A DNA stretch of 22,828 nucleotides from a virus (Duplodnaviria; Heunggongvirae; Uroviricota; Caudoviricetes), in the IMG/VR virus record IMGVR_UViG_2737471841_000005, positions 1-22,828 of that record; one strand, written 5' to 3'. Shown here one piece after another: positions 40 to 17,706 of this stretch (positions are counted from its first letter, which is position 1; every line of letters starts with the position of its first letter). A program made the position numbers and the translations under genes. The notes below the pieces were generated by a model. That model was not told where the DNA came from. It did not search any database and was given only the letters and a program-made list of their open reading frames with translations.

Positions 40-402
40 GGGGCTGATTCTGGATTCGACGGGATTTGCGAAACCCAAGGTGCATGCCGAGGGGCGGTTG
101 GCCTCGTAAAAAGCCGCAAAAAATAGTCGCAAACGACGAAAACTACGCTTTAGCAGCTTAATAACCTGCTTAGAGCCCTCTCTCCCTAGCCTCCGCTCTT
201 AGGACGGGGATCAAGAGAGGTCAAACCCAAAAGAGATCGCGTGGAAGCCCTGCCTGGGGTTGAAGCGTTAAAACTTAATCAGGCTAGTTTGTTAGTGGCG
301 TGTCCGTCCGCAGCTGGCAAGCGAATGTAAAGACTGACTAAGCATGTAGTACCGAGGATGTAGGAATTTCGGACGCGGGTTCAACTCCCGCCAGCTCCAC
401 CA
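40..402 (+). ncRNA. ssrA: tmRNA (transfer-messenger RNA, SsrA)
   Basis: Begins GGGGCTGATTCTGGATTCGACGGG and ends ...GGACGCGGGTTCAACTCCCGCCAGCTCCACCA, 363 nt, matching my memory of E. coli ssrA; contains the tag reading frame; possible -10 TATACT at 20..25 upstream. Confidence 0.95.
129..161 (+). other. tmRNA tag-peptide reading frame (ANDENYALAA + TAA)
   Basis: GCA AAC GAC GAA AAC TAC GCT TTA GCA GCT TAA read directly in the sequence; canonical enterobacterial degradation tag. Confidence 0.9.
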
Positions 403-403
403 A
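358..403 (+). repeat. attL core: 46-bp direct repeat lying in the 3' end of ssrA
   Basis: ATGTAGGAATTTCGGACGCGGGTTCAACTCCCGCCAGCTCCACCAA recurs identically at 17707..17752; identity breaks on both sides. Confidence 0.85.
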
Positions 404-575: not shown

Positions 576-1289
576 ATGGACTTCAACCTGAACAAAAAAA
601 TGCCAGTTAATAGATATCTTGTGATAATAGTTTTTGTCCTTTTAATCTTAGCCTGTATGCAGTTTATTTATCTTTGCCTTCGTTCATTAAGCATTGCCCC
701 AAACTATACGGGGACTGTAAGTGACATTATAATAGCTACAACAAATATTATTTTAGCTACCTACGCCGTTCGTGCATTCAAAAACTTATTTAAAGATAAA
801 CTATCCGATAATGCCATTAGTAAAATAGATACAGCATTGATGTCTCTCGATGATTGCATAGATAGTTTTTCAAGCTTATTTTTAAATATGACACTTATTA
901 AGATTTATAAAAACACTAATAACCCCAAGGACCCTCAGTTAGTTAAACAGCTCGATGAAGCAGCAAAAAACATCGAAAAAGCAACAAGTTCAGCCTACAA
1001 GGCAAGATCTATAATTGGCTCATTAACTCGTTGGAATATAAGCTTAAACACAGAAAAAGGAATAAGACTAAACCAACTTACCGCTGATGTTTTTGAGTTA
1101 GGCATGCAGGCAACAAATATGTATATCGCACTAATAAATGAAATAAACCCTAACTCCCCATACAACTCTTTAACTCATAGACCATTTGATGAGTTATTTA
1201 ACGAATTTAATGAAGAAAAGACCAGAGTTGAAGACGAAAGCAATGAATTAAAAGAGTTCTCTATTCATGAAATATTTAAAATCAAATAA
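576..1289 (+). CDS. Hypothetical membrane-anchored protein (AT-rich cargo gene between attL and ogr)
   Basis: 237-aa ORF; ATG at 576 with GAGG 6 nt upstream; hydrophobic N-terminal segment (YLVIIVFVLLILACMQFIYLCL) then a charged, helix-prone domain; visibly AT-rich versus the phage genes; no family recognised. Confidence 0.7.
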   Translation: MDFNLNKKMPVNRYLVIIVFVLLILACMQFIYLCLRSLSIAPNYTGTVSDIIIATTNIILATYAVRAFKNLFKDKLSDNAISKIDTALMSLDDCIDSFSSLFLNMTLIKIYKNTNNPKDPQLVKQLDEAAKNIEKATSSAYKARSIIGSLTRWNISLNTEKGIRLNQLTADVFELGMQATNMYIALINEINPNSPYNSLTHRPFDELFNEFNEEKTRVEDESNELKEFSIHEIFKIK

Positions 1290-1675: not shown

Positions 1676-2776
1676 TTATTCCATCTCAAGATCACCAATC
1701 CTCACTTCAAGCTCAAGACTGGTCGTAAAACCGTTATCCGGGCTGACGGTATGTGTCAGAGTCGTAATGGTCCATTCCGCATCATCTATCGGCTGTTTAA
1801 AGCCACTGACCTTCACAGGCATTTCTGTGTAGAGGTCTGCCCGCCCTTCCGCCAGTTGTAGCGAGAATGATGCAACGCCGCGTTGCAGGCGTTCCCACTG
1901 CATTTTCGCTGCCCGTTCGGCGTTGCTCCGGTTGGCATAAGTGCGATTAAGTACCAGCACGTTTTCATCCGTACCCACCAGATAATCGCCCTGCTTCGCT
2001 TCCGGCTCTTTCTTCTGCTTCTTAGTCTTGCGCTTACGCTTCACCGTAGTGCTTTCTTTCTTCGCGGGTTCGCGGGTATGCAACCAGCTGGCAATTACAC
2101 CCGTATAGGCTCCGCGATCTGCCAGGGTAAAGCGGTGACTGTCGCCGTCTTTACGTGTGATAGAGATCACCGGCAGTGGTTTACCGCTGGCGCTTTTGCC
2201 CTGTCCCTGCCGGATGAATAACAGATTGCCATTTTTCACCGACGCGATGGCACCGTACTGTCGCGCCAGCCGCATCAGAAAACTACCGTCACTCTCATTA
2301 GTCTGGTCTATATGCTCTACGAGCTTATCCGACAGGTCTTTACCCAGTGCCATCTTCAGCTTATGCCGCGAGGCTATTTCCTTCACCACTTCCCCGACGG
2401 TGGTCTTATGCCACGATTTTTCACGGCGGGTATTCAGCGTTTCCCGAAAATCAGCACTTCGCGCCCGGATAGTCAGGCGATCCGGTGCGCCAGTGTGTTC
2501 AATCTCGTCCACCGTGAATGCCCCTTTCGGGAAAAGCGGCTGCCCCTTCCAGCCCAGCGCCAGCGTGATGACCGCACCACGGCGCGGCAGCACGATTTTT
2601 CCGTCGGCGTCGTCCAGCTCCAGATCAAGCTGGTCTGCTTCAAAGCCCCGATTGTCCGTCAACGTCAGACTCATCAGGCGGTTATCCAGCACAGTGGTGA
2701 TATCCTTCCCCTCAATACTGATGCTGAATGCGGGAGTTTTGTTGCCTTTGTTAAGCAGTTCAGAGCTGAAATTCAC
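1676..2776 (-). CDS. D: Tail protein gpD (P2 late gene D family)
   Basis: 366-aa ORF, last gene of the FI-FII-E-T-U-D synteny; GTG start overlapping the gpU stop. Confidence 0.8.
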   Translation of the reverse strand: MNFSSELLNKGNKTPAFSISIEGKDITTVLDNRLMSLTLTDNRGFEADQLDLELDDADGKIVLPRRGAVITLALGWKGQPLFPKGAFTVDEIEHTGAPDRLTIRARSADFRETLNTRREKSWHKTTVGEVVKEIASRHKLKMALGKDLSDKLVEHIDQTNESDGSFLMRLARQYGAIASVKNGNLLFIRQGQGKSASGKPLPVISITRKDGDSHRFTLADRGAYTGVIASWLHTREPAKKESTTVKRKRKTKKQKKEPEAKQGDYLVGTDENVLVLNRTYANRSNAERAAKMQWERLQRGVASFSLQLAEGRADLYTEMPVKVSGFKQPIDDAEWTITTLTHTVSPDNGFTTSLELEVRIGDLEME

Positions 2777-3258
2777 GACAGCAGCCCTCCCACCGTTTTA
2801 CTGATATCGCTTAAGGCAGACGTTGCCGTGTCCTGCAGATTATTCAGTTGAGTACTGAGATCACCGAACATATCGGACAGGGATTCATCCACCCGTTTTA
2901 GCGAAAGGGTGAACTCAATCCTGCGCGGCATACCGTCGCGGAAAAACTCCGTTTTAGTCTGATTCAGTCCCTCAATCACATACATGCCGTAAATCGTGCC
3001 GCTGCCTTCAATCAGGGGCCATGCTTTCCCCTGTTCTGCCATCTGCTCCAGTGCCAGCAACGACAGCCTGCCGCCTGTTATCTCCGGCATAAGAACACCG
3101 GAAAGCGTCAGCATGTCGTTTTCCGGTCCCAGAAACTGCGTGGACGGACGACGGTTTACCCGGCTGTTTGCCGCATGTCGCCAGCTGCGTTGATACTGCA
3201 GTTCCTGATACGGAACGGTGCGCAGCATAAACACGTACAATCCCAGCACCATCATCAT
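2773..3258 (-). CDS. U: Tail protein gpU
   Basis: 161-aa ORF between tape measure and D, translationally coupled on both sides; P2 gpU size. Confidence 0.8.
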   Translation of the reverse strand: MMMVLGLYVFMLRTVPYQELQYQRSWRHAANSRVNRRPSTQFLGPENDMLTLSGVLMPEITGGRLSLLALEQMAEQGKAWPLIEGSGTIYGMYVIEGLNQTKTEFFRDGMPRRIEFTLSLKRVDESLSDMFGDLSTQLNNLQDTATSALSDISKTVGGLLS

Positions 3259-6200
3259 GCGTCGTATCCCCCCTGATCGCTGTAGTTACTCCTGGCTTTT
3301 GCCTTCAGCCTGCGTTCACGTTCATCAAGCTGGCGTGCCACCTCCCGCGCAATATCCTGCGCACTTTGTCCTGGCTGCGTCTGAATGATGATCTGCGTCG
3401 GTGCCTCAATCCGTTGAACGAGCGGCACAGTGGCTGCGCGACTCACAATTGCTTCTCCACCTTTCGCGGGAAGTGCCAAAGGGTGCAACGGTGGAAGCTC
3501 TGCTGGCGCGGCAGCAACGCCCATCATTCCGGCAACAACGGCAGCCAGTGCAGCTGTATTTCTCCGGCTGGTCACATTTGCCGGGCCGTTAACAATTTCC
3601 GGCCCGTTTTCACCGACGATGCCAAACTGCCCGCGCGGGATATACCCGCCGCTGTCATACATCCCCGCAAAGCCATATCCCCATGACGGAAAACCACCCG
3701 ATGGCATCATCACTTTACCGTCTGCATTCACCGTCGCAGGTTGCTGACGCGTCACGCTTTCCGGCAGTTTTGCCTTTGCGGCCTCTTTACTGACAATGCC
3801 AAGTTTCTCCAGCAACCAGGAAACGCCGGATTTCAGGGAGTCCAGCGGATGCATGACCATATTCAGCCCTTCCGCCAGTGCCTCTCCGAATCGCCGCCCC
3901 ATTGCCGCTGCACTCTGCAGTTCGGCAGAGGTCGACTTAACGGGCGTCAGCAGATCAGTAAACCAGCCCCACAGCGCCTGTACTTTGTCGCCAATCCACT
4001 GGAACACGGGCTTAAGCGGTTCGAATGCTGCACTGATGGGACCTGCCGCCGCTTTGAATCCTTCCACCACGCCACCAAGAAATGCGGTGATGGGTTGCCA
4101 GTATTTCCAGACAACCAGCGCCACGCCCGCCAGTGCAGTAACCACAAGACCTATCGGACTGAGCAGAGCACCTAACAGACCAGATACGGCATACAGGGCA
4201 ACGCGCAGCATCGCCAGTGGACCAGATGCCAGTACTCGCAGCACCGTGCCTGCGGCGACCAGTCCACCGCGCAGTACCGCCAGAGGATTCATAAACATCA
4301 CAGCAACAGCACGTAAACCGGATAATCCAGACCGCAAAAGTGCAACCGGCGCACCTGCTACAGTTTTCAGGACATTTCCCGTCAGTGATGCCGTGCGGCG
4401 CAAAGACGACAACGGCGCAGTAAGTAAACCTGCGGCGTTGCCCGATGAAGCAAGCCCGCGTCGCAGCAGTGCCAGTGGTGCGCCAGCCAACCAGGACAAC
4501 GCGCTGCTGGTTCGAGTTACTGCTGCCGTAACAGAAGGTAACGTTTTGATACCCAGCACAGAGAATCCCAGACGGATCACTGCCAGCGGCCCCAGCACTG
4601 CAGCCAGCGCCACCGCTAAGGTGCCGAGGCCTACTGTAACCGCAGCCACAACAGCCGCTACTTTCATCAGTGTGCCTGTCAGTTCCGGGTTAGCTTCCAC
4701 CCAGCGGCGCAACGCCCCCGTGATTCTTTTCACCGTGTACAGAATATCCATCAGCGGCTGGCGCAGCGTTTCGCCCAGGCTGCTGAAGGTGTTCTGCGCT
4801 CCGGTTTTGACCAGCAACCACTGAGCAGAAAGTGAGTCTTTGTTGATGTCGGATTCTTTCTGCATGGAACCGAGCGCATCATTGCCCGCTGTCAGTTTTA
4901 GCTGGCGCTGCAGTTCCGGAAGGTTGTTTGCCAGTTTCGCCGCGTCATCACCAAACTCTTTACCAAACAACATGGTCATGGCAGACAGACGCTTGTCCTG
5001 CGGCAGTGCGTTCACCTTCTCCAGCACACGCTGGATAGTTCCCATCGCATCCTTCGTCATCTGCTTTTCAATCACTTCAGGATTGAGTTTCAGCAGATTC
5101 ATCCCTTCAAAGAAACTCTTGCTTTGCATGGTGGCAATGGACAATTCACGCACCATCGCGTTTGCTGCACTGGCTGCAACCTCCGGCGCAGCGCCCAGTG
5201 TCAGAAAGGTGGAACCCAGTGCCGCCGCTTTACGATAATCCAGACGATCAGCCACACCGCCCAGGCGTTGCATGACATCAATGATGTCTGCCCCTTTCGA
5301 CATGGCGTTATCATCCAGATAGTTCAGCGCATCACCGAGCTGTTCAATATTGCGGGTAGGGATTTTGTAGAGCTGGGCGATTTTCCCCAGACTTTCTGAC
5401 AGTTCATCCGCTGGCAGCTCAAAGGCTGTTGCCGCCTTTGCTGCCGTGCTGGCGAAGGCCAGCAGATCACGTTTCTGGTCTTCCCAGCTGTCGTCAGGGT
5501 TTGCGACGTTCATGCGCGCCCCACCTTCAACCAGTGCAGCGAAGTCCACCGCACCGTTTTCCATCGGCAGCTGTTCGCTGGCAGCCTTGATGGCATCCTG
5601 CATTTCATAAAAACGCGCAGTGCGGTTGCCATTATCGTCACGCAGACCATTGACCTGCTTTGCCACACCTTTCATGGCATCTTCCATGCTGGTATAGCTT
5701 TTTACTGCCGCCATCACTGGCGCACCCATTGCCAGCCCTGCAGCCGTGGTAGTGGCTCCGGCTCCTGCGATGCGATCGCGCACTTCAAGCCGTCTTGAGT
5801 ATTGTTCTCTGGCAGCGTTCATCCGTGCCTGTTGTTCACCCAGACGTTTAAGTGCTCTTTGCTGGCCCTCCAGTGCCTGCCTTGTTTCTTCAGCATTTTT
5901 CTTAAGTTCTCGCTGGGCACTACTGAGTTGTCTGGTATCAATCCCTGATTCTTTAAGTGCCTGACGTTGTCTCTGGACCGCCCCCAACAAGCCGTTATAG
6001 GTCTGCTGAAGTTCCTGTACTCGTGTTTTGGCCTGACTGAATAACTTTGCCTGCGCGGCGGTTGGCCTGTTAGTGGCAGCAAATTGTGTGGCGAGTTTTG
6101 CCGCCTCTTCGCGGGCTGCGTTCAGGTTGTTGGCTGTTATGGCTAGTTGCGAGCGCGTCTTGCGAAATTCATCAATTCTGCCAGCCTGCTTATTCAGTTC

Positions 6201-6332
6201 TTTGAGGCTGTTTCGGGTATTCTGAATTGCGCCAGCCAGCTCTTTCGAACTGGCCTGTGCAGCACGGAATGGGCGGGTGAGTTTGTCAACCGTATTAAGA
6301 ATGACCTGCAGGCGCAGGTTATTATCACTCAT
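3255..6332 (-). CDS. T: Tail tape measure protein gpT
   Basis: 1025-aa ORF; N-terminal coiled-coil-like region, Ala/Gly/Leu-rich hydrophobic stretches, C-terminal domain; position after E/E' as in P2. Confidence 0.9.
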   Translation of the reverse strand: MSDNNLRLQVILNTVDKLTRPFRAAQASSKELAGAIQNTRNSLKELNKQAGRIDEFRKTRSQLAITANNLNAAREEAAKLATQFAATNRPTAAQAKLFSQAKTRVQELQQTYNGLLGAVQRQRQALKESGIDTRQLSSAQRELKKNAEETRQALEGQQRALKRLGEQQARMNAAREQYSRRLEVRDRIAGAGATTTAAGLAMGAPVMAAVKSYTSMEDAMKGVAKQVNGLRDDNGNRTARFYEMQDAIKAASEQLPMENGAVDFAALVEGGARMNVANPDDSWEDQKRDLLAFASTAAKAATAFELPADELSESLGKIAQLYKIPTRNIEQLGDALNYLDDNAMSKGADIIDVMQRLGGVADRLDYRKAAALGSTFLTLGAAPEVAASAANAMVRELSIATMQSKSFFEGMNLLKLNPEVIEKQMTKDAMGTIQRVLEKVNALPQDKRLSAMTMLFGKEFGDDAAKLANNLPELQRQLKLTAGNDALGSMQKESDINKDSLSAQWLLVKTGAQNTFSSLGETLRQPLMDILYTVKRITGALRRWVEANPELTGTLMKVAAVVAAVTVGLGTLAVALAAVLGPLAVIRLGFSVLGIKTLPSVTAAVTRTSSALSWLAGAPLALLRRGLASSGNAAGLLTAPLSSLRRTASLTGNVLKTVAGAPVALLRSGLSGLRAVAVMFMNPLAVLRGGLVAAGTVLRVLASGPLAMLRVALYAVSGLLGALLSPIGLVVTALAGVALVVWKYWQPITAFLGGVVEGFKAAAGPISAAFEPLKPVFQWIGDKVQALWGWFTDLLTPVKSTSAELQSAAAMGRRFGEALAEGLNMVMHPLDSLKSGVSWLLEKLGIVSKEAAKAKLPESVTRQQPATVNADGKVMMPSGGFPSWGYGFAGMYDSGGYIPRGQFGIVGENGPEIVNGPANVTSRRNTAALAAVVAGMMGVAAAPAELPPLHPLALPAKGGEAIVSRAATVPLVQRIEAPTQIIIQTQPGQSAQDIAREVARQLDERERRLKAKARSNYSDQGGYDA

Positions 6333-6761
6333 CGTTGGCCCCGCTTCTCTGAATCGCTTTATACCGCCATTCCAGCACTTCGGTCAGCGGCATAACGTCA
6401 GTAACGGATGGCGGCCAGTGAAAGATGGTGGCGATATCAGCCACCAGATCGTCAACCGTCAGGCTGTCGGTAAACCGGCAAGCACCGACTTCTTCAACAA
6501 AAAAGTGACAACCTCAACCGACATGGCAGTGAGATCTGCCGGGTCCATCTCTGCGATTTCCTGTGCAGTCAGTGCCGGACTGGAGATGCGGGGGATCACG
6601 GTCATCATCGCGTTCACATCCATATCCATAATGGCCTGCAGGCGTGTGCCGCGCAGCGCACCGGACTGCGGTTTACGCAGCACAATTTCGGTAATTTCTG
6701 TTTTACCGCGCATGATGGGAGTATCCAGTTTAATAGTCTTTTCAGTCTGCTTATCGCTCAT
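6325..6761 (-). CDS. E': gpE+E' fusion made by programmed -1 ribosomal frameshift at T TTT TTG (6498..6504)
   Basis: Slippery heptamer on the minus strand at codons 87-88 of E; the -1 frame stays open for 57 codons (VEEVGACRFTDSL...RSGANDE) and stops at TGA 6325..6327 overlapping the gpT start; about 145 aa total, as for P2 E+E'. Confidence 0.7.
6459..6761 (-). CDS. E: Tail assembly chaperone gpE (in-frame product)
   Basis: 100-aa ORF MSDKQTEKTIKLDTPIMRGK... between FII and T; carries a T TTT TTG slippery site near its 3' end. Confidence 0.85.
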   Translation of the reverse strand: MSDKQTEKTIKLDTPIMRGKTEITEIVLRKPQSGALRGTRLQAIMDMDVNAMMTVIPRISSPALTAQEIAEMDPADLTAMSVEVVTFLLKKSVLAGLPTA

Positions 6762-6815
6762 TTTGCTGTCCTGTAAATTGGGTTCTGGCGCGGCATTCCG
6801 CGCCGTTCAGATACA

Positions 6816-7331
6816 TCAGAGGCCGAGGGCGTTGCGGTGCGCTTCCATCAGGTCCACACCGTCCACAATTTCCACCATGTTGATAAGGTCCACTTCATAG
6901 AGCACCTCACCATTGATAGTCAGCTTCGCGTAGCTGTTGGTACTGGTCACTTTGGTGGTGTTGCTTTCGCCCGTCTTCCACTCGCCGGAATCCACTTCTT
7001 TGTGACGTCCACGCACCACAAGCTCCACGGCCTGCACTTCTCCGGTATCGTCACGCTGGATAGAGCCGGTGAAGCGCAACTGGATGCCATCCACCGTGGC
7101 TTTGCCCATCTGTTTAAACAGCAGCAGTTCAGTACCACCAATGGAAAATTCTGTGTCCAGCGCACTGTCATCAAGCCCCAGATCCACATCCACTGCACCC
7201 GGCATTCCGCCGCCGCGATACTTCTCATATTTGCGGGTGAATTTCGGCAGCGTCAGCGACTCAACGATCCCCTGCCAGTTGTTCCCGTCATTAAACAGGT
7301 TCAGGTGTTTTAATTTGCGTGGTAAAGCCAT
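6816..7331 (-). CDS. FII: Tail tube protein gpFII
   Basis: 171-aa ORF MALPRKLKHLNLFNDGNNWQG..., size and position as in P2 FII. Confidence 0.9.
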   Translation of the reverse strand: MALPRKLKHLNLFNDGNNWQGIVESLTLPKFTRKYEKYRGGGMPGAVDVDLGLDDSALDTEFSIGGTELLLFKQMGKATVDGIQLRFTGSIQRDDTGEVQAVELVVRGRHKEVDSGEWKTGESNTTKVTSTNSYAKLTINGEVLYEVDLINMVEIVDGVDLMEAHRNALGL

Positions 7332-7340
7332 GTTGTCCCC

Positions 7341-8513
7341 TTACGCGCTGACCTGGCTGGAGAAATTCACCAGGTACTGATCGGTGATGCGCTGACGCAG
7401 CATCAGGTTTTCAAGTGGCGGCACTGGCGTGTAGTCGTAGTCGATGGTGAGTTTTCCGGCTTTCAGCGTGTCTTTGTCGTTCACCGACTCATCCAGCCAG
7501 CAATCACCACCAATGAGATAGCCCTGACTGACCAGGCTGCGCATTTTGGCGCGGATACCCTCGATAATGTCGCGGGCCAGCGACGGGTTAAGCGGTTTAT
7601 CCACCGCCCACATGTGTGCTTCTGCCATCGTGTCCATCAGTACCTGCGCTGTACGGGTGTAGTTCTCGAAGGCAAAGAGCGGGTCATCACTCAGGCAGCG
7701 GGAACCCCAGAAGCGGAAACCATCCTTGCGCACAAGCGTGGTGACGTCGTTCTGGTTCAGCAGACCTGCATCGGTTGCCGGGTCCTGCAGATCCCAGAAC
7801 ACATCAGCAGAAATTCCGGTGACACCGTTCACGCCCACGTTGGACAGGCTTTTGTGCCATCCGGTCTGCTCATCAATTTTGGCGCGCAGACCGAGCGCAC
7901 GGGCGGTGGCATAAGCCGTTGCTTCGGCATTCAGCACCGTGTCCCAGCCAGTAAAGTCGGGCCAGATCAGCATTCCTTCACGCTGACTGAAGTTTTCACG
8001 GTAAGTGATCGCCTCCTGTACCGTCTTGCAGCCATACGCTGACAGGTAAGCAAACCCACGCAGGCTTTGCGCCACGCTCAGCAACTCAGTAGCTACCGCC
8101 TTGGTGTCGTGGCCTGGCACGCCGAGAATGCGCGGTTTAACGCCGAGCTGTGACTGGGCAGATAACAGGGCTTTCATACCTGTTTTTTTACCTTCAGCAG
8201 TCACTGCGCCGATGATATTGGTCGTGGTTTCGTCTTCCGTTTCACCCTGCGGCACACGCACAACAATGGTCACGGGTTTTGCCTGGTCAGCGATGGCATC
8301 CAGCGAACGGGCCAGAGTACCTGACTCACCCGCTTTACCGCTGGCAGTCAGCACATCAGTGATCAGCACGGGTTTATTAAGAGGAAACATTTTTGCATCG
8401 GCATCATCGCCCGTGCAGACCATACCCACGATGGCGGTGCTCACCGTGGTAATAGATCGGGTGCCTTCGTTGACTTCAACAACGCGCACCCCGTGGTGGT
8501 AATCCTGAGCCAT
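7341..8513 (-). CDS. FI: Contractile tail sheath protein gpFI
   Basis: 390-aa [22 protein letters not shown]..., first gene of the tail operon; AGGAGG RBS upstream. Confidence 0.9.
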
Positions 8514-8589
8514 AGTGGCGAACCTCCTGATTGGATTAGGCTTCGCCCTATGTTGAAGTGATTGTGCCTGACAAACAGCTAAGCGCAGT

Positions 8590-8607
8590 TGTGTCGTTAT
8601 TCACACA
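8590..8607 (-). promoter_or_regulatory. Candidate Ogr-dependent late promoter element (TGT-N12-ACA dyad) for the FI operon
   Basis: TGTGTCGTTATTCACACA dyad about 85 bp upstream of the FI start codon; matches the P2 late-promoter activator site pattern. Confidence 0.4.
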
Positions 8608-8655
8608 AAATAACGGTATTTGTCTGCTTGCAGGGATAATCAACATAATGCTGAT

Positions 8656-9228
8656 TCAGGGGGATTCATTGATCTTATTTGCCGGAAATTTTCTATAAAT
8701 GGTAGAAACGCCTACATCAAAAATCAGTGCAATACGCTGTCTTGATTCTCCGGCCTCGAGTAAACGCCCAATCTGTGCCCACTGTTCGGTGGTCAACTTA
8801 GGATGGCGTCCACCTACTCTGCCTTTGGCACGAGCTGCAGCCAGCCCTGCCCTGGTACGTTCAACTATCAGTTCGCGTTCCATTTCAGCCAGGGCACCCA
8901 TGACATGAAAAAAGAAACGGCCCATTGGGGTACTGGTATCAATACTGTCAGTCAGGCTTCTGAAATTCACACCACGCTGGCGCAACTCTTCTATCAGCGT
9001 AACAAGATGCCGCATACTGCGCCCCAACCTGTCCAGCTTCCAGACAACCAGCGTGTCTCCTGCCGATAGTGTCCTGAGTAGTTTTTTCAGCCCCGGTCTG
9101 TCGGACTTAGTGCCACTGATTTTGTCCTCAAAAATCTGCTCACATCCCGCGCAGTTCAGTGCATTACGTTGCAAATCGGTGTTCTGGTCATTTGTTGACA
9201 CGCGTACATAGCCAATAAGCATGATCAT
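8656..9228 (-). CDS. Serine DNA invertase, Pin/Gin/Cin/Hin family
   Basis: 190 aa, MLIGYVRVSTNDQNTDLQRNAL... with catalytic Ser motif and C-terminal HTH; likely true start at the MLIGY Met (9222). Confidence 0.9.
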   Translation of the reverse strand: MIMLIGYVRVSTNDQNTDLQRNALNCAGCEQIFEDKISGTKSDRPGLKKLLRTLSAGDTLVVWKLDRLGRSMRHLVTLIEELRQRGVNFRSLTDSIDTSTPMGRFFFHVMGALAEMERELIVERTRAGLAAARAKGRVGGRHPKLTTEQWAQIGRLLEAGESRQRIALIFDVGVSTIYRKFPANKINESP

Positions 9229-9276
9229 CCCCCTGAATAAAAACCGGAGATGATGCCAGTTAGCTGTTACCTCTGC

Positions 9277-9302
9277 ATTTTCTTAAACGTTGGTTTGGGA
9301 GA
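9277..9302. other. Invertase crossover site (gix/pix-like, 26 bp)
   Basis: Reverse complement TTCTCCCAAACC-AA-CGTTTAAGAAAA resembles the gix half-site TTATCCAAAACC with a central AA dinucleotide; about 50 bp upstream of the invertase start, as gixR is for gin. Confidence 0.55.
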
Positions 9303-9663
9303 AGCAGCGAAACGGGGTGTGGGAACAGGGGAAAATCAGATACCGGACATGGCTTCTTTTGCCAGTGGTGATGGATGGATGAAATTACCCAACGGTAAAA
9401 TTCTGCAATATGGTCGAGGTGAGGCTATGCCGAAATTATCGACGCAAACAATGAGGATTACATTTCCTATCCCTTTCCCTAAAAAAGCGGACTGCGCCAT
9501 TCTTACCCATTCTGGTGATGGCGGTGCGCCTTTAGGCGCTGGGCGAGGGTTCGTGATGACTGCAGAAGGCCCTACGTTAACCGGCTTTAATTCTGCTTAC
9601 AGAACGTCATCAACCAGCGACACGGTATCTATGCATTACAGTTGGTGGGCTGTTGGTGAGTAA
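9277..9663 (+). pseudogene. Orphan tail-fibre variable C-terminal segment (Sv'-like)
   Basis: Reading frame opens at the crossover site and runs away from the invertase; Gly/Ser/Thr-rich fibre-tip-like sequence; no constant N-terminal fibre part in the window. Confidence 0.45.
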
Positions 9664-9674
9664 TTTTATTCAGG

Positions 9675-9850
9675 GTGATTTATATGAACGAATATGTTTA
9701 TAGTGCCAAGCATAATGCTTTTTTCCCTGTGGATATGATTGATAAATATAAATCAGTAGGATGGGATTTATCAGATGCTAAGGAGGTGAATCAAAATATT
9801 GTCAGTGAGTTTATGGCTGAACCGCCACAAGGAAAAGTCCGTATTTCCGC
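9675..9850 (+). pseudogene. Tail-fibre assembly (Tfa/U'-like) gene, N-terminal fragment
   Basis: Starts MNEYVYSAKHNAFFPVDMIDKYKSVGW, resembling the N-terminus of phage tail-fibre assembly proteins; recognisable sequence stops after about 55 codons where the gpA-like gene overlaps on the other strand. Confidence 0.45.
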
Positions 9851-10951
9851 GATAAGCTCCAGACCTTTAACACAGACCATCATCTCATTGCGGCGATGCG
9901 CAGGGTTGCTGCTGCTGGCGTTTACCACATCTTCCATATCCAGCGTGTCGCCGTCTTCGTTCACCAGTTCATGAGAACGAAAAAACTCCAGCGACTTACG
10001 GCGCTGCTCACGTTTATGCATCACGGCTTCATAGCTGACATAGGGGGATGCTTTTTTGCTGACCAGGCAGACAGCACGCAACTGCTCTTCCCGCCATTCG
10101 CAACGCATCTTCCATAATTTCCGATACCACCAGTCGGCACACAACATACGCGCCAGCGAACCCGGAATGAGTTCATAGGGCACGGGTTTACGGCGGTTTC
10201 TTTTCCGACGGAGTTGCTCAAACGCAGGCGGAATAACATCCAGACGCAGGGTTTCCGCTGCCACCTTTTCCCATGTTTTGCGGATTTCTTCTGGCTTAAC
10301 GTCATCGGTGGCATACAAATCGCCACAAGCTGCATCAAGACACATGCTCATATGCGCAGCAACAAGGGTGGACAGGCGTTTCACCTGATCCTGACTCATT
10401 TCAGGCAGGATCAGCAGGCCGTCCAGCCCTTCATGGCTTGCCATAAAGCGAAAAGAAGTGGATAGCTGACTCTCGCGTACATGCTCCAGTCGTTCCAGAC
10501 ATGGCTTAATCGTCTCACGCAAATAGCGGGAATAAGCCTTTGGCCTGCCCAGGCTGCTGAAGTATTCAATACGTTGCATCAGCGGCTTGCTGATATGGGA
10601 AGGCTGGGCGTTGACGTCCGCCAGAATGACCATGTCTGGATTAAAACGCTGCTGCTCATGCGCCAGCTTTGCCCGGCTAATGAGCTTATCCTGCTCCATT
10701 TCGCGCTGGACAGGATCACGGGATTCATTAAAGAAATAACGCTCCCAGACCTGATCACTCAGTGCCTCGCGGCGCAGTTGTTCCTGCTCGTTATCGGCAG
10801 CGTACAGAGTGATCAGGTTTGAAAGCGCAGAAACCGGCGCAACTTCTGCCGGGTCCAGATAAGGGTTAATAGCCTTTTTCGGGCTGTCCCATGAGAATGC
10901 TGCGGCGGCCTCGTTAAAGCCGCTGCAGTTGTTCATATCAGCATGGCTCAT
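9791..10951 (-). pseudogene. gpA-like replication initiation protein, C-terminally truncated by a deletion
   Basis: 386-aa ORF coupled to dam upstream (ATGA overlap) in the gpA position; about half the length of P2/186 gpA and ends in non-conserved sequence overlapping the tfa fragment. Family call is by position and weak recall. Confidence 0.45.
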
Positions 10952-11805
10952 GCACGCACTCCGTACACGGCAGAACTATCCACGCCACGCGAAGGATCAA
11001 ATCCCACCCAGCAGCGCGCCCCAGAAACAGCGATGATTTCTGTTGCAGATTTACTCTCACCAGCTGCTACGCCGATGCTGCGTTTTGCCTTGATGTAGTG
11101 GTGAGTAAAATTGCGATACAGCGAACGGATCAGGGATGTGTCACTGTTAGAAACAATGACCGGATGTCCTTCTGATGACCGATGTTCAAGAACGGATGCC
11201 AGGTGATACTGGTCATCTTCAGTGAAGCCGTCAGTGTGATAACCGGAAAACGTGCCGTCATACGGCGGATCGCAATACACCACATCCCCCGCCTTCAACA
11301 TCGCCAGCGTTTCATCAAAGCTGGCGCAGATAAACGTTGCCCGCTGGGCTTTCTCTGCAAATGCGCGAATTTCTTTTTCAGGGAAATACGGATTTTTATA
11401 ATTACCGTAGGGAATGTTGAAATACCCGCTCTTGTTATAGCGACATAACCCACGGTAACCATGACGATTGAGATACAGAAAATATACCGCTTTCATGAAA
11501 TCAGTAATTTCAGTGGAGTAATTAAACTCCTGCCTTATGTTGTAATAAGCCACCTCCCTGTTTGCTTCCTCAAATAAAGCTCTGGCACGAGATATAAATG
11601 CCTCACAATCAGCAGCAACCTTTTTATAGAGGTTGATTAAATCAGGATTAATATCCGCAACAAGATAGCTGGGGTAATCCGTCTCCATCATCACAGCACA
11701 GGAACCCGCGAAAGGTTCAACCAGTCGCGGGCCAGCAGGAAGGTGTTTTTTCAGTTCGGACATAATGGCGGTTTTATTTCCCGCCCATTTCAGGATGGTG
11801 CTCAT
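10948..11805 (-). CDS. dam: DNA adenine methyltransferase (Dam-like, GATC N6-adenine MTase)
   Basis: [11 protein letters not shown]...LVEPFAGS...DPPY motifs as in E. coli Dam; GGAGGTG RBS 5 nt before the ATG at 11805; overlaps the TraR-like stop. Confidence 0.9.
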
Positions 11806-12029
11806 ACAGCACCTCCGTTGTAATGTTTGCCTTTCAGCTCTGCAATTTCCTGGCAGGTAATGCAAAGCTGCACACCCGGAATGGCACGGCGGCGTGCTGG
11901 CGGAATTGGCGCTTCACACTCAATGCAAAGCACGCGAGACACGCCCGGTGTTTTGGCACGGGCAGCACGGATATGGCGCTGGCGTTCTTCTTCAACGCGC
12001 TGCTGTACGAGATCCATTGCATCAGCCAT
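11802..12029 (-). CDS. TraR/DksA-family C4 zinc-finger protein
   Basis: 75 aa with CIECEAPIP...CITCQ Cys pairs; typical small P2-like early-region gene. Confidence 0.8.
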   Translation of the reverse strand: MADAMDLVQQRVEEERQRHIRAARAKTPGVSRVLCIECEAPIPPARRRAIPGVQLCITCQEIAELKGKHYNGGAV

Positions 12030-12268
12030 TAGTGGATCTCCTGCGCTTCGTTCTGGATTGCTTCAGCAGTCACACGCAGCAGTTCTGCCGCTTCCACGTG
12101 GTTTAGCTGACGGGATGAGATATGACACGCCAGGCTATCAAGGCGAGCTGCCATTGCTTCAGCCCTTGCCCGGCGTTCTTCCAGACGAGCCTCTGTCAGT
12201 AAAATATTAAGCCCTGCATCATCCGGTCCGGTTTTAGTCATGAGGATTTCAATATTACGCATAATCAA
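12029..12268 (-). CDS. Hypothetical phage early-region protein
   Basis: 79-aa ORF in the early operon, tightly packed with neighbours; no family recognised. Confidence 0.5.
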   Translation of the reverse strand: MIMRNIEILMTKTGPDDAGLNILLTEARLEERRARAEAMAARLDSLACHISSRQLNHVEAAELLRVTAEAIQNEAQEIH

Positions 12269-12329
12269 TTCTCCTGAATTTAGATAAAGGGATGCTCGGC
12301 GGGTTTACGCCATTAATTTCATTAGTTGG

Positions 12330-12671
12330 TTAATTCGGCATGGTTAGCCGTCTGGGAAATAAGCTCACCACTGCACGAAAATGATTCATTGCTTTAATCA
12401 ACTCCCGCTTTTCGTCAGTGGTCAGCTCATTGATGCTGATGCTATGACGTTCAGCCGGAATTTTTGCCATAAAGAATATGGCTGCCAGTGCTCGTTTATT
12501 TTGTTCGTTATTGATATCCCGTGGATCACGCATATCTTTAATAAACCGCTCAAGCTCTGACTCAATATTCAGGCCAAAAACTTTCGCCCTTAATTCCGCT
12601 ATGTGATTAAGTCCATTCAGGCGTTCACCGGGGCTTAATGGAACAGTCGCCGCAGCGCCTTCAATAGCCAT
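12330..12671 (-). CDS. Hypothetical phage early-region protein
   Basis: 113-aa ORF in the early operon; no family recognised. Confidence 0.5.
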   Translation of the reverse strand: MAIEGAAATVPLSPGERLNGLNHIAELRAKVFGLNIESELERFIKDMRDPRDINNEQNKRALAAIFFMAKIPAERHSISINELTTDEKRELIKAMNHFRAVVSLFPRRLTMPN

Positions 12672-12835
12672 TTGTTCCCCCGTTTTTTCGTAGATAGTTC
12701 TGCCAGCAATTCATCTTGTGAACGGCACGGATGCCAGCGTTTACCATCCTCACCCATGATCCAGCCGTGACCGTAGTGCATTGCCGGACTTTGTTTTACC
12801 AGCAGCGATGCAAATGATGGTTCTTTCGTCAGCAT
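12635..12835 (-). CDS. Hypothetical small phage protein
   Basis: ORF downstream of cII; likely start at the internal Met (MLTKEP), avoiding overlap with cII. Confidence 0.4.
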   Translation of the reverse strand: MLTKEPSFASLLVKQSPAMHYGHGWIMGEDGKRWHPCRSQDELLAELSTKKRGNKWLLKALRRLFH

Positions 12836-12842
12836 AAGCACC

Positions 12843-13352
12843 TCACAGCAAACCGAATGAAGCACCGAGGCCGGTTACAGTATCAACTGCACTTGCCATC
12901 GCAGGATTAACCTGTAAACGGGCCTGCAATGAAACAGCAGCTAACGCCATCAGTCGTGTAACAGAGTTAATGCTGCTGATAGCATCACGACGACCTGCAC
13001 TGGTTTTTACATCGCCAGATACCGCACCTGCAGCAACACGCCCGATCTCTGCGGTTGCACTCATGACGTAATGTGGCAGTTTCTCTTTTGCCACCTCATT
13101 AATCGGTACACATGGCAGGCAGTGAATCTGTGCCAGAAAACCGTCTACCAGCGTTGAATCTTCCGTCAGATCGGTAAGTAGCCAGATATCTGGCGCATTG
13201 AGCTGATGCGGTTGATCTGGGTTGAGTTTGTTTCGCAGAGTCTGGACATTCATTCCTGAACGTTCTGCCAGCTTCGCCATATTGTGACGAAGTGCAAAAG
13301 CTCTACAGGCTTCATCAAAATGCGGGTGTTTGGAAATCTTATAATCAAACAT
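12843..13352 (-). CDS. cII: 186-type CII lysogeny-establishment regulator
   Basis: 169 aa, MFDYKISKHPHFDEACRAFALRHNMAKLAE...; size and second position in the rightward operon match coliphage 186 CII. Confidence 0.7.
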   Translation of the reverse strand: MFDYKISKHPHFDEACRAFALRHNMAKLAERSGMNVQTLRNKLNPDQPHQLNAPDIWLLTDLTEDSTLVDGFLAQIHCLPCVPINEVAKEKLPHYVMSATAEIGRVAAGAVSGDVKTSAGRRDAISSINSVTRLMALAAVSLQARLQVNPAMASAVDTVTGLGASFGLL

Positions 13353-13384
13353 GCTACCCCCTTAGAAAGTTCTCATAATTGAAC

Positions 13385-13627
13385 TTACTTACCAACAATG
13401 ACGCGGAAGTTGGAATGACCGAGGGATTCACGGACCTGATCGGTTTTGTACATTAAATAACGCAGGCTTACGCGGCCTTTGTTTTTTTCTTTCTTGACCA
13501 TGTATTTAGCAAGCTGACCATGATGAATTTTTTGATACACAGAGCCGCGGGAGATACCTTCCCATTCCGCGAACTCTGCAGGCGTAGCCATCTCTTTTGG
13601 TACACGAATTGAAATATCAGTGCTCAT
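13385..13627 (-). CDS. apl: Apl/Cox-type excisionase and transcriptional regulator
   Basis: 80-aa basic HTH protein, first gene of the lytic operon, divergent from cI; GGAG RBS upstream. Confidence 0.7.
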   Translation of the reverse strand: MSTDISIRVPKEMATPAEFAEWEGISRGSVYQKIHHGQLAKYMVKKEKNKGRVSLRYLMYKTDQVRESLGHSNFRVIVGK

Positions 13628-13685
13628 AGTGCAGTATCTCCCGATTAAGGTTTGGTTTACGTCGTTTTATCTCGTTTTACTTGAT

Positions 13686-13729
13686 TCAATATTTGATACA
13701 TCGAGATACTACGATCCAATATTTGATAC
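13686..13729. repeat. Two 13-14-bp direct repeats (CAATATTTGATAC) spaced 30 bp apart, bracketing the pR -10; candidate CI operators
   Basis: Copies at 13686..13699 and 13716..13729; second tandem pair TCGTTTTA at 13662..13669 and 13672..13679. Confidence 0.45.
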
Positions 13730-13734
13730 GTCAA
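13706..13734 (-). promoter_or_regulatory. Candidate lytic promoter pR for apl-cII (-35 TTGACG, 17-bp spacer, -10 TAGTAT)
   Basis: Minus-strand hexamers at 13729..13734 and 13706..13711 with 17-bp spacing, about 75 bp upstream of the apl ATG. Confidence 0.55.
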
Positions 13735-13746
13735 CAGGATTAAAAA

Positions 13747-14379
13747 ATGATACAGGTAAAGGTTGGAGAGAATACAGGGGGAAGAGAGGCTATCCATAGA
13801 CTAATGGCAGCCTATGATTTCAAGTCCAGACAGCAACTTTGCGATCACTTAGGCGCATCAAAAAGCACCATGGCAAACAGATACTTAAGAGATAGTTTTC
13901 CTGCAGAGTGGGTGATTCAGTGCGCCTTGGAAACAGGAGTTTCTTTACTGTGGCTAACCACCGGACAGGGGGAGCCAGGTCCAAACATTGAACCTAAAAA
14001 AAATATCAATTCCGTGAACTCCAGCAAGGTTGTACCTCTTTCTGAACTAGTATCTCCTGAAATTGACAAGGCGACTCTCAACGGTGGTTTATTGGTCGAT
14101 GCTGGAAAAGCAATCATTGATAGCAGCATACTCCCCTCAGACTCAAGCAACCTACTGCTGGTGACTACTTCTGGTGATTCTTATTTAATAGATCGCAACC
14201 AAACACCACCAGTAAATGGTATGTGGTTAGTCGATATTGACGGGATAAAAAGCATTGTTAAATTGACTCGACTTCCGGGAAACAAATTAGTAGTGCATCA
14301 GGATGATTCATCGTTTGAGTGTGGCCTAGATGACATTGAGGTAGTAGGCCGCGCACTGAAAATCATTAAGAGCCTTTGA
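13747..14379 (+). CDS. cI: 186-type CI immunity repressor
   Basis: 210 aa; N-terminal HTH region with ...CALETGVSLLWLTTGQGEP resembling 186 CI; immediately precedes int on the same strand. Confidence 0.8.
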   Translation: MIQVKVGENTGGREAIHRLMAAYDFKSRQQLCDHLGASKSTMANRYLRDSFPAEWVIQCALETGVSLLWLTTGQGEPGPNIEPKKNINSVNSSKVVPLSELVSPEIDKATLNGGLLVDAGKAIIDSSILPSDSSNLLLVTTSGDSYLIDRNQTPPVNGMWLVDIDGIKSIVKLTRLPGNKLVVHQDDSSFECGLDDIEVVGRALKIIKSL

Positions 14380-14380
14380 T

Positions 14381-15397
14381 ATGACCATCAGAAAACAGCC
14401 GAACGGAAAATGGTTGTGTGAGTGCTATCCCAATGGACGCAATGGTAAGCGCGTGCGTAAGCAATTTGCTACGAAAGGCGAAGCCATTGCTTTTGAAAGC
14501 TTCACAATGGAAGAAGTGAATAAAAAACCGTGGTTGGGTGAAAAGGATGATCGGCGACGCCTATCAGAATTAATTGAGCTTTGGTATTCCCTGTATGGTC
14601 AGACACTCGCAGACCCCAAGCGCCTCATGGCGAAACTTAGAATTATCTGTAATGGTCTAGGCGACCCCATCGCCTCAGAACTGACAGCCGGTGACTTTAC
14701 GAAATACCGCGAAGCACGATTAAAAGGTGACGTTCGTAACGAAGACGGCACACTAATGTCGCCAGTAAAACCACGCACGGTGAATCTTGAGCAACGTAAC
14801 CTATCATCGGTTTTCGGCACATTGAAAAAACTAGGCCACTGGTCAGCACCAAATCCTCTCGCCGGGCTGCCAACATTTAAAATCGCTGAGGGGGAACTGG
14901 CGTTCCTGACCTCGGAAGAAATTAAACGTCTGCTAGATGCCTGCGCTGATTCTCAAAACCCCAGTCTGCTTTTGATTGCAAAAATATGCCTGGCCACCGG
15001 CGCACGCTGGAGTGAAGCTGAAAACCTGCAGGGCCATCAGTTATCTAAATACCGCATCACTTATACCAAGACGAAGGGTAAGAAAAACCGCACCGTGCCG
15101 ATATCTCAAGATCTGTATGACGAACTCCCCAAGAACAGAGGGAAGCTATTCACCCCGTGCAGAAAAGCCTTTGAACGAGCAGTAAAGCGAGCTGGCATCG
15201 AGCTGCCAGAGGGCCAATGCACTCACGTGCTACGTCATACATTCGCCAGCCATTTTATGATGAATGGCGGAAACATACTGGTGCTGCGCGATATTCTGGG
15301 CCATGCCGATATAAAAATGACGATGATTTACGCCCACTTTTCGCCCGATCACCTTGAAGATGCGGTAACTAAAAACCCTTTATGCAACTTAAGATAG
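14381..15397 (+). CDS. int: Tyrosine integrase, P2/186 family
   Basis: 338 aa; N-terminus like P2 Int (PNGRNGKRVRKQFATKGEAIAFE), catalytic ...TGARWSEA..., HVLRHTFASHFMMNGG and MIYAHF (R-H-R-Y). Confidence 0.92.
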   Translation: MTIRKQPNGKWLCECYPNGRNGKRVRKQFATKGEAIAFESFTMEEVNKKPWLGEKDDRRRLSELIELWYSLYGQTLADPKRLMAKLRIICNGLGDPIASELTAGDFTKYREARLKGDVRNEDGTLMSPVKPRTVNLEQRNLSSVFGTLKKLGHWSAPNPLAGLPTFKIAEGELAFLTSEEIKRLLDACADSQNPSLLLIAKICLATGARWSEAENLQGHQLSKYRITYTKTKGKKNRTVPISQDLYDELPKNRGKLFTPCRKAFERAVKRAGIELPEGQCTHVLRHTFASHFMMNGGNILVLRDILGHADIKMTMIYAHFSPDHLEDAVTKNPLCNLR

Positions 15398-15777: not shown

Positions 15778-17511
15778 CTACTCAAGGAGATATTCTAACT
15801 CATCTTTTATCGGGATAATTTGCTCATAAAGTCGGTGATATGACTTCCCAATTGCGCCTCTAAATTGTATTAACTTTGGTGGCTTACTACCTATATTAAT
15901 AATATGGTCTTGAGCTATACCTGGGTAGGGATCAATAAATACAATTTCAGATATACCTAACTGATAAGCTTTTTTCGCACACAACTCACAGGGACTGGCA
16001 GTTGTATACAACTTCCCCCCCAGAACGCCAATACCACCATATTTTGCAAGTTGTAAAAATGCGTTTTCCTCAGCATGTAATGCACGTGTATGAACTTGAT
16101 TACCTTTTTTCTCTTTATCAAGATCATTATGTATATCTTTAAAACAATAAGATAAGTTCCTGCCTCTATAAATATCACCAGTTTTATCTATCGCCCTAAA
16201 ATTTAAGAGTTTCTCATTAGCTTTAATTCTGAAAGAACTATTATTTCTCTCATAATGACTGTACGTTTTTTCATCAAAATCGTTCATTAGGCCATCTAGA
16301 GATCTCATAGAGCAAGGAATCTGACCGTTGGCAACATCATTCCAACCAACTGATTTTATTGAATTATCACCATCAGTTACTACAGCTCCCACCTGTCTAG
16401 ATATACAGCCAGAGTTTAATTTTACCGTATACGCAACTTGCATAACCCTTTCCATTGCAGTAGGTGTTATCAGACCAGGATGCTTCATCAGTGCGATGTA
16501 CCACGCTAATTGTGCTTTTAAAATATTGTCATTATCAAATTCATTTTTTGGGTTAAAAATGTGTATATCTGATAGTTCAATACATTTAGTTACATTTGGA
16601 TTGGTGAGATGTTTGTAAGAGTTATCACCTTTACCTGACTCTACAGAATCTATTTCCTCTATCTGCTTTTCTGAAAACTTATGTAGTTTCCGCAAATAGT
16701 TTGTTCGATGTTCATCTGGGGCATTTATTGACATTAAATGAAATGCAGAATATCTATCCTTAAAAAATTTTGCCTCATATGGATTTCTAATAGCATCTAT
16801 GACAATTAATGCGTTATCTCTTTTGCTTTTTCTTATTAATTTAATAACCCTATTAATAGTTTCCGGCAAATGAAAAACAGATTTAGGCATAAACTCTTTA
16901 TCTTCAAAATCGACTTCAATACGCCCACGACGTCTAATTGACTTACCTGCTAACTGATAGGCTGAAACATATAAATTTGAGTTTATCTCATTTAGTTCAG
17001 CTTTGAATTCTTTAGTAAATTTTCTAACTAACTTCAAAATTGATATAAATTTATTAATCGTTTTTTCATCAAGCTTCAATTCACTATTATGATCAAGCAA
17101 ATTCTCAATTACATTTTTAAATCTTGTCAAAATGAGATTATCTGAGAATACACCAAAAGTTAATACAATATCTAAATGCTCTTTACTGATAAATTTATTA
17201 GATGATAGAATGAATTCAGAAGCTTCCTCAACTGTTAACATCAGAAGATACGCTGAGATTAGGTCACTCACCTTAATTGAGTAAAAATTTTCCCAGTGAT
17301 TTTCTGCGAATTTTTTAACTATATTATAACGATGGACATCCAATCCCTTGTAAAACCCCTGTAATTTACTTACATCAGGGAAGACTGTTTTTTCGTTTTC
17401 AAGAATATTAGCTGTTGTTGTGCAACCAGAACCAGTTCGACCTGTCAAACCGACTAAAATAAACTGCCCATTTTCAAGGAAAAGCTCACTAACGAATTTT
17501 TTTTCTTTCAT
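15778..17511 (-). CDS. P-loop kinase-like / cytidine-dCMP deaminase fusion protein (AvcD/Dcd-type anti-phage candidate)
   Basis: 577 aa from ATG 17511 (GTG at 17514 in the track); N-terminal P-loop-like VGLTGRTGSGCTT, C-terminal zinc deaminase motifs HAEENA (around 16075) and PCELCAKK (around 15990); strongly AT-rich; sits between int and attR. Confidence 0.85.
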   Translation of the reverse strand: MKEKKFVSELFLENGQFILVGLTGRTGSGCTTTANILENEKTVFPDVSKLQGFYKGLDVHRYNIVKKFAENHWENFYSIKVSDLISAYLLMLTVEEASEFILSSNKFISKEHLDIVLTFGVFSDNLILTRFKNVIENLLDHNSELKLDEKTINKFISILKLVRKFTKEFKAELNEINSNLYVSAYQLAGKSIRRRGRIEVDFEDKEFMPKSVFHLPETINRVIKLIRKSKRDNALIVIDAIRNPYEAKFFKDRYSAFHLMSINAPDEHRTNYLRKLHKFSEKQIEEIDSVESGKGDNSYKHLTNPNVTKCIELSDIHIFNPKNEFDNDNILKAQLAWYIALMKHPGLITPTAMERVMQVAYTVKLNSGCISRQVGAVVTDGDNSIKSVGWNDVANGQIPCSMRSLDGLMNDFDEKTYSHYERNNSSFRIKANEKLLNFRAIDKTGDIYRGRNLSYCFKDIHNDLDKEKKGNQVHTRALHAEENAFLQLAKYGGIGVLGGKLYTTASPCELCAKKAYQLGISEIVFIDPYPGIAQDHIINIGSKPPKLIQFRGAIGKSYHRLYEQIIPIKDELEYLLE

Positions 17512-17706
17512 CACGTCCCACTTATGAATGCAAGAACAATTAGCATATTAATTATAATTTATTAACTAATTTTATTCTAGATGCTTGATGTAATGGCGGC
17601 ACTTTGGCGGCAGAGCATTAAAAACGCGTAAGACGAGCAAATACAAAATAACACTAACACATTGTTTTCAAACATAATCTACTGTTTTTACTATAATAAA
17701 AATGGT

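Follow-up and report, generated by a model that had tools for sequence, protein, structure and literature searches.

The locus analysed here is, with high probability, what remains of a Pin-type switch for tail fibres, carried by a P2-like prophage at the ssrA gene of Escherichia coli and orphaned by a single recent deletion of ~17 kb. It lies in a 22,828-nt stretch of DNA (hereafter the window), in which an invertase gene is accompanied by only one crossover site. One microhomology-mediated deletion in the prophage appears to have removed the rest of the switch, a cause of the single-site state that the original prediction for this DNA did not recognise. The finding is one of ordinary prophage decay, unusually cleanly documented, and its importance beyond annotation is little. 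Its value lies in providing a clean and datable case of a DNA invertase becoming an orphan, in that one microhomology deletion removes the partner site, intact and inverted parents still circulate at ~99.97% identity, and both a later step of decay (a truncated invertase in the sister contig L005) and an end state (a pinH fragment in the same window) are visible. If activity of the enzyme in trans were true, the locus would represent a second case of PinQ-type control between cryptic prophages. The coordinates of all features are compiled in Table 1.

Table 1. Features of the prophage remnant and of its orphaned fibre switch (window coordinates).
Feature	Position	Strand	Basis or details
ssrA (tmRNA) gene, 3' end serving as attachment core	40–402	+	ARAGORN; tag peptide ANDENYALAA
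attL, copy of the 46-bp ssrA 3' repeat	358–403	+	Exact 46-nt direct repeat with 17707–17752
P2-like (Peduoviridae) prophage remnant, ~17.3 kb	403–17706		Gene calls and Pfam matches on the identical contig L004
Tail sheath gene (FI), neighbour of the invertase also in intact relatives	7341–8513	-	
Pin-type serine DNA invertase, intact, 188 aa	8656–9222	-	Alternative start at 9228 gives 190 aa
Putative Fis-dependent recombinational enhancer, within the invertase 5' end	9133–9204	-	Homology and position only
Silent alternative fibre C-terminus, Gp53-like_C	9253–9663	+	Pfam PF21882; ORF passes through the crossover site
Lone surviving 26-bp crossover site, pix type, 12+2+12 dyad	9278–9303	-	TTCTCCCAAACC-AA-CGTTTAAGAAAA
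Crossover site, outer half	9278–9289		
Crossover site, centre	9290–9291		
Crossover site, inner half	9292–9303		
Tail-fibre assembly chaperone of the silent tip, first 54 of 147 codons	9684–9845	+	tblastn against the L012 chaperone; PHROG 188
Deletion junction, ATT microhomology (imperfect ATTnCCG)	9843–9845		Three-way alignment with intact chaperone (L001) and intact gpA (Cartapus)
Replication endonuclease gpA, N-terminal ~370 of 804 codons	9846–10951	-	Pfam Phage_GPA 1–179 of 321; tblastn, Cartapus gpA residues 1–371
attR, copy of the 46-bp ssrA 3' repeat	17707–17752	+	Exact repeat of the last 46 bases of ssrA

The prophage remnant and what is left of its switch

Positions 1–20951 of the window are 100% identical to an E. 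coli draft contig (GCA_005391745.1, BFZI01000098.1), and positions 2656–15222 are identical to a second E. coli assembly (GCA_000798295.1). Between the duplicated ssrA 3' ends, the genes follow the order known from P2 (ogr-D-U-T-E-FII-FI ... A-dam ... cox/CII-CI-int). On the minus strand, ogr, D, U, a gene for a 1025-aa tape measure, E, tube and sheath are followed by the serine recombinase, and beyond the switch stump lie the truncated gpA gene, dam, small early genes, Cox/CII-like regulators, the CI repressor, the integrase and a cargo gene. This gene order is shared with the Escherichia phages 500465-1 and Cartapus (Peduoviridae) at 95.7–99.9% nucleotide identity up to the crossover site, and the gpA/dam side is 97.3% identical to RE2010 at the nucleotide level. 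The remnant falls short of the gene set of a viable phage, having lost the genes for baseplate, fibre, lysis, head and terminase along with the C-terminal half of gpA.

The surroundings of the switch hold further accessory sequences. The cargo gene between integrase and attR (15778–17514, minus strand) encodes an anti-phage dCTP deaminase (NCBIfam NF041025, E = 2e-127; PADLOC dCTPase, E = 1e-145), and the related prophages Cartapus and UTME-8 carry a different 1.2-kb gene in this slot. The other cargo slot of the prophage, between ssrA/attL and ogr, is occupied by a 237-aa ORF (576–1289, plus strand) that gave no match in NCBIfam, PHROGs or PADLOC, nor in the Pfam results precomputed for its identical counterpart on L004; judging by its position, it may be an accessory or defence gene of a kind not yet characterised. 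A 67-nt repeat with 94% identity between its copies (398–464 and 21924–21990) covers the DNA that immediately follows ssrA and contains a stem-loop. Its second copy lies past ypjA and pinH, and the repeat probably marks an earlier island of the CP4-57 type, integrated at ssrA in tandem with the P2-like prophage. The adhesin-like autotransporter gene ypjA/ehaD (17912–21301, minus strand) no longer forms one reading frame; its three ORFs encode 108, 700 and 330 aa and include AIDA repeats, and a genome with 100% identity over this interval lists the gene as frameshifted and incomplete.

The original prediction had proposed an intact invertase of the Pin/Gin family, and domain content and homology confirm it. 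The protein combines a catalytic and a DNA-binding domain (Pfam Resolvase, E = 2e-53; HTH_7, E = 8e-15) and shares 85% identity with PinE of e14, 77% with Cin of P1 and 74% with Gin of Mu. Its alignment to 3UJ3, the sequence of the Gin crystal structure, covers the full length (E = 3e-93). The protein belongs to PHROG 125 (DNA invertase, E = 8e-101) and conserves the catalytic Ser9 along with every alignment column common to Gin, Cin and PinE. In Hin, contacts to Fis and the enhancer involve the basic residues 47, 48 and 51 as well as Gln151, Arg154 and Leu155 (PMC3798978). All of their equivalents are present here, namely K46, K47 and R50 as the basic residues of helix B and Q150, R153 and L154 as the Fis contacts. 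The putative enhancer agrees with the annotated P1 cin enhancer (cin nt 19–90) at 56 of 72 positions, compared with 55 of 72 between P1 and Mu, figures in which conservation is confounded by the coding function of the region. A promoter scan upstream of the invertase gene revealed no sigma-70-like site and nothing above the shuffled expectation.

The crossover site is located 55 bp upstream of the invertase start. It matches the pinE-proximal site of the e14 P segment of E. coli K-12 at 25 of 26 positions (0.00 expected by chance) and the invertase-proximal site of every intact relative examined at 26 or 25 of 26, and it contains the sequence TTGGTTTGGGAGAAG, described as the inverted repeat of e14 (PMC12529663). 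A 26-bp "gix-like" site had been predicted at 9277–9302. The site itself is real, as its near-identity to the e14 pix site indicates, and its symmetric dyad is shifted by one base from that interval; the likeness to gix, in turn, is weak. The annotated Mu gix is matched at 17 of 26 positions at best and P1 cix at 19 of 26, while 17 of 26 is also reached at two other positions of the window and 19 of 26 in 3 of 30 shuffled windows. On sequence grounds, the resemblance to gix is by itself near chance, and it is the pix identity together with the orthologous position that argues for a genuine site. Raw gix/cix similarity was therefore dropped as proof and replaced by the identity to the e14 site and the inversion break-points of the relatives described below.

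The site also acts as a mosaic boundary between phages. In comparisons with different P2-like phages, homology stops or starts within or near it (window 9285–9312), because the contents of the segment have been swapped between phages. In phages pro483 and Omnitron, the similarity is confined to the tip and chaperone and begins at 9285–9287, and in other phages it is confined to the invertase side; pro483 annotates the shared tip as its own tail fibre gene.

On the far side of the site, the silent tip points away from the invertase, with no constant part available for fusion. The intact prophage L012 has a silent tip of 100% identical sequence, and in L013 this tip supplies the end of the expressed 473-aa fibre, which bears out the unexpressed alternative fibre tip of the original prediction. 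The accompanying chaperone, which had been described as half present, is reduced to 54 of 147 residues, approximately a third.

For the missing parts, the prediction of an absent inverted partner site and an absent constant fibre gene proved accurate within the window. Searches of both strands of the 22.8 kb for either site type (up to three mismatches), for half-sites and by dyad score yielded no partner site above chance, with half-site matches at two mismatches occurring at the chance rate (3 found versus 2.0 expected). Two partner candidates, at 1525–1550 and 15061–15086, were rejected, as both differ from either real site type at eight or more positions. The former has the right centre but only a single recognisable half-site with two mismatches, and the GA centre of the latter does not match. 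Likewise, tblastn with the constant part of the fibre, the second chaperone, gpI and gpJ found no match in the window. What the locus lacks as a switch is thus a pair of inverted sites with identical centres, the constant part, and the second tip with the second chaperone.

Intact relatives and the deletion junction

Intact relatives of the prophage show what the complete arrangement looks like. Their partner site, TTCTCCCAAACCAAGGTATG(T/C)GAGAA, lies in inverted orientation 1.8–1.9 kb away within the fibre gene. Two of them, the E. coli assemblies L012 and L013, carry exactly the window's invertase (188 aa) and exactly its crossover site, and they are collinear with each other except for an inversion of 4041–5933 with break-points in the two sites. 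Both resulting fused fibre ORFs are open. In one orientation, the fibre comprises 509 aa and ends ...AYLGLGE-GSALPVG..., and in the other it comprises 473 aa and ends ...AYLGLGE-AAKRGVGTGENQIPDM...WWAVGE, the latter being the silent tip of the window. The occurrence of both orientations among near-identical intact prophages indicates that the parent switch is functional in nature. Both orientations are known for the parent type only; the window locus shows one arrangement in all contigs seen.

These relatives also bear on the state of the enzyme. The exact 188-aa invertase is found in intact, invertible prophages, and relative to prophages that do invert, the protein is identical and the surrounding DNA is free of mismatches. 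Since the allele and the DNA up to the junction match those of working prophages, the orphaned invertase is probably still made and active. The substitution R140H, a candidate inactivating mutation, was rejected as a defect because the same His-140 allele is present in prophages of both orientations.

Based on this comparison, we propose the following history. In the parent phage, two inverted 26-bp sites, located within the fibre gene and beside the invertase gene, delimit a segment of ~1.9 kb that the invertase flips. Depending on the orientation, the constant part of the fibre is fused to one or the other C-terminal tip, and each tip has a dedicated chaperone. A single event of illegitimate recombination at a 3-bp microhomology would then have deleted ~17 kb between the silent chaperone (codon 54) and gpA (codon ~370), with the Gp53-like tip in the silent position at the time.

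The junction can be read directly from the alignments. Window 2656–9845 differs from the intact prophage L012 by two SNPs in 7.2 kb, both located in the tape-measure gene. The match to L012 stops at 9845/9849, and from 9843/9846 the window matches the complement of gpA codons ~370 to 1; the truncated gpA ORF reaches 9791 by way of codons created at the junction. Measured against Cartapus, the missing DNA amounts to ~17.4 kb. This stretch comprised the remaining codons of the silent chaperone gene, the second tip with its chaperone, and the constant part of the fibre with the partner site; the genes for baseplate, lysis, head and packaging, the cos site and the last 430 codons of gpA were lost as well.

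Of the 24 contigs read with this invertase allele, at least 17 share the junction, so that most contigs with the allele have the deletion form. The junction is also present in 6 contigs with an identical truncated gpA; the sources are NCBI and Logan assemblies. Among 5,426 complete E. coli genomes searched, the junction was absent, and the best matches stop at 9849. It is known from draft and Logan assemblies only. An assembly artefact would nevertheless have to recur identically across many independent assemblies, which argues against this origin. The invertase itself might instead have made the deletion, which begins just 540 bp from the crossover site, but the point at which GTCCGTATT meets TCCGCGATAAG has no similarity to the site, offers a plain 3-bp microhomology, and leaves the crossover site untouched. 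We therefore give practically no credence to either origin and retain a microhomology deletion as the preferred reading.

Persistence and possible activity of the orphaned invertase

Wild-type invertases show no chemical activity unless they are part of an invertasome, in which two dimers, each bound to a site, and an enhancer occupied by Fis come together on one supercoiled molecule, and the reaction is restricted to intramolecular inversion (PMC3798978). Because one site cannot build such a two-site Fis/enhancer complex, the switch is predicted to be dead in cis.

The original prediction had described the invertase as retained without its substrate segment. Structurally this is correct, but the selection implied by the wording gives way to recency, given the two SNPs and the fate of the gene in a sister lineage. 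The intactness of the gene needs no selection, because two SNPs in 7.2 kb correspond to too little time for decay; the invertase would hence persist through the recency of the deletion. In the sister lineage (L005; GCA_005400305.1), a second deletion of 5.1 kb at a TA microhomology, equivalent to window 3678–8760, has removed the sheath, the tube and most of the tape measure and has fused the invertase to the 3' end of the tape-measure gene. The invertase is cut after L154, with loss of its DNA-binding and recognition helices, and this truncation argues against selection for retention. In the same contig, another integrase-bearing element adjoins the ssrA fragment.

Could the enzyme nonetheless serve elsewhere? 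PinQ, the orphan invertase of the cryptic prophage Qin, inverts the P segment of e14 and thereby blocks adsorption of phage T2 (PMC12529663), and action in trans is therefore already known in kind. The window invertase, too, resides in a defective prophage without a local invertible segment, as do PinQ and PinR. An e14-type site and 85% identity of the enzyme to PinE make action in trans mechanistically reasonable, and it is plausible that the invertase could flip pix-type segments of other prophages on the same chromosome.

A further-reaching version of this idea holds that the gene is a domesticated orphan kept by selection, which flips segments of other prophages (such as the e14-type P segment) and confers a host phenotype, for example by blocking adsorption. 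In addition to the similarity to PinE, the single mismatch among the 26 bases of the e14 pinE-proximal site and the precedent of PinQ with its protection against T2 (PMC12529663), homologous loci are often present in several copies, the 1.6-kb region matching 2075 complete E. coli genomes at a median of 2 and up to 8 places; moreover, the deletion form is the commonest context of the allele among the contigs read. Set against this, the remnant differs from an intact prophage by only two SNPs in 7.2 kb, every other gene of the remnant is equally intact, and the DNA-binding domain of the invertase is gone in one sister lineage. On balance, we consider domestication unlikely. The remnant is stably inherited, and a useful retained gene would look alike. 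Were the orphan invertase expressed, acting in trans and under selection, for which we see only a slim chance, it would constitute a second, independently arisen PinQ-like switch caught at the moment of its origin.

The lone site might also recombine with a pix-type site in a distant prophage of the same chromosome and so generate large chromosomal inversions. The site, the enzyme and the adjacent gene bearing the putative enhancer are all intact in cis, and recombination mediated by Cin at secondary chromosomal sites has been reported, which counts in favour of such events. In the contigs examined, however, no rearrangement is seen at 9278–9303, where both flanks are always the same. In addition, assembly of the invertasome prefers nearby sites within one supercoiled domain (PMC3798978). 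Such inversions are thus very improbable, and persistence through the recency of the deletion remains the reading we favour.

Comparison with known inversion systems

Close counterparts are phages 500465-1 and Cartapus and the prophages L001, L010, L012 and L013, which share the order sheath-invertase-site and the two site types with the parent of the window locus. In contrast to the window, they have kept the whole 1.8–1.9 kb segment and all morphogenesis genes.

The P segment of e14 in K-12 with its invertase PinE resembles the locus in the enzyme (85% identity), in the proximal site (25 of 26 positions) and in the inner repeat TTGGTTTGGGAGAAG. The layout is also the same, with the invertase reading away from the site and the silent tip and chaperone facing the invertase. 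The two differ in that e14 has kept both of its sites, 1797 bp apart, and still inverts, whereas the window has neither the partner site nor the constant part of the fibre. Furthermore, e14 sits at icd, while the window remnant is a P2-like prophage at ssrA.

Gin with the G segment of Mu and Cin with the C segment of P1 belong to the same family (74% and 77% identity, respectively) and share the 12+2+12 site architecture, a chaperone for each tip, and an enhancer within the 5' end of the invertase gene, which is putative in the window; the central AA dinucleotide is shared with cix of P1. The Mu and P1 systems differ in being complete, in their unrelated tips, and in their sites, which match that of the window at only 17 (gix) and 19 (cix) of 26 positions.

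PinQ and PinR of the cryptic prophages Qin and Rac provide a further parallel, as they are likewise small serine invertases in defective prophages with nothing local to invert. PinQ is only 38% identical to PinE (PMC12529663), whereas the window enzyme is a close relative of PinE that was orphaned very recently, with one site, a tip and a chaperone stub still in place. Activity in trans has been shown for PinQ and is a proposal for the window enzyme.

The last comparison lies within the window itself. A pinH-like serine-invertase pseudogene (21442–21780, minus strand) has 76% nucleotide identity to invertase positions 8963–9093, and the copy in a related complete genome is annotated by PGAP as "recombinase family protein, incomplete". 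As part of a CP4-57-type remnant 12 kb away, pinH is likewise an orphan invertase gene in an ssrA-associated island, but it survives as a short non-coding fragment, whereas the invertase gene at 8656–9222 is still whole.
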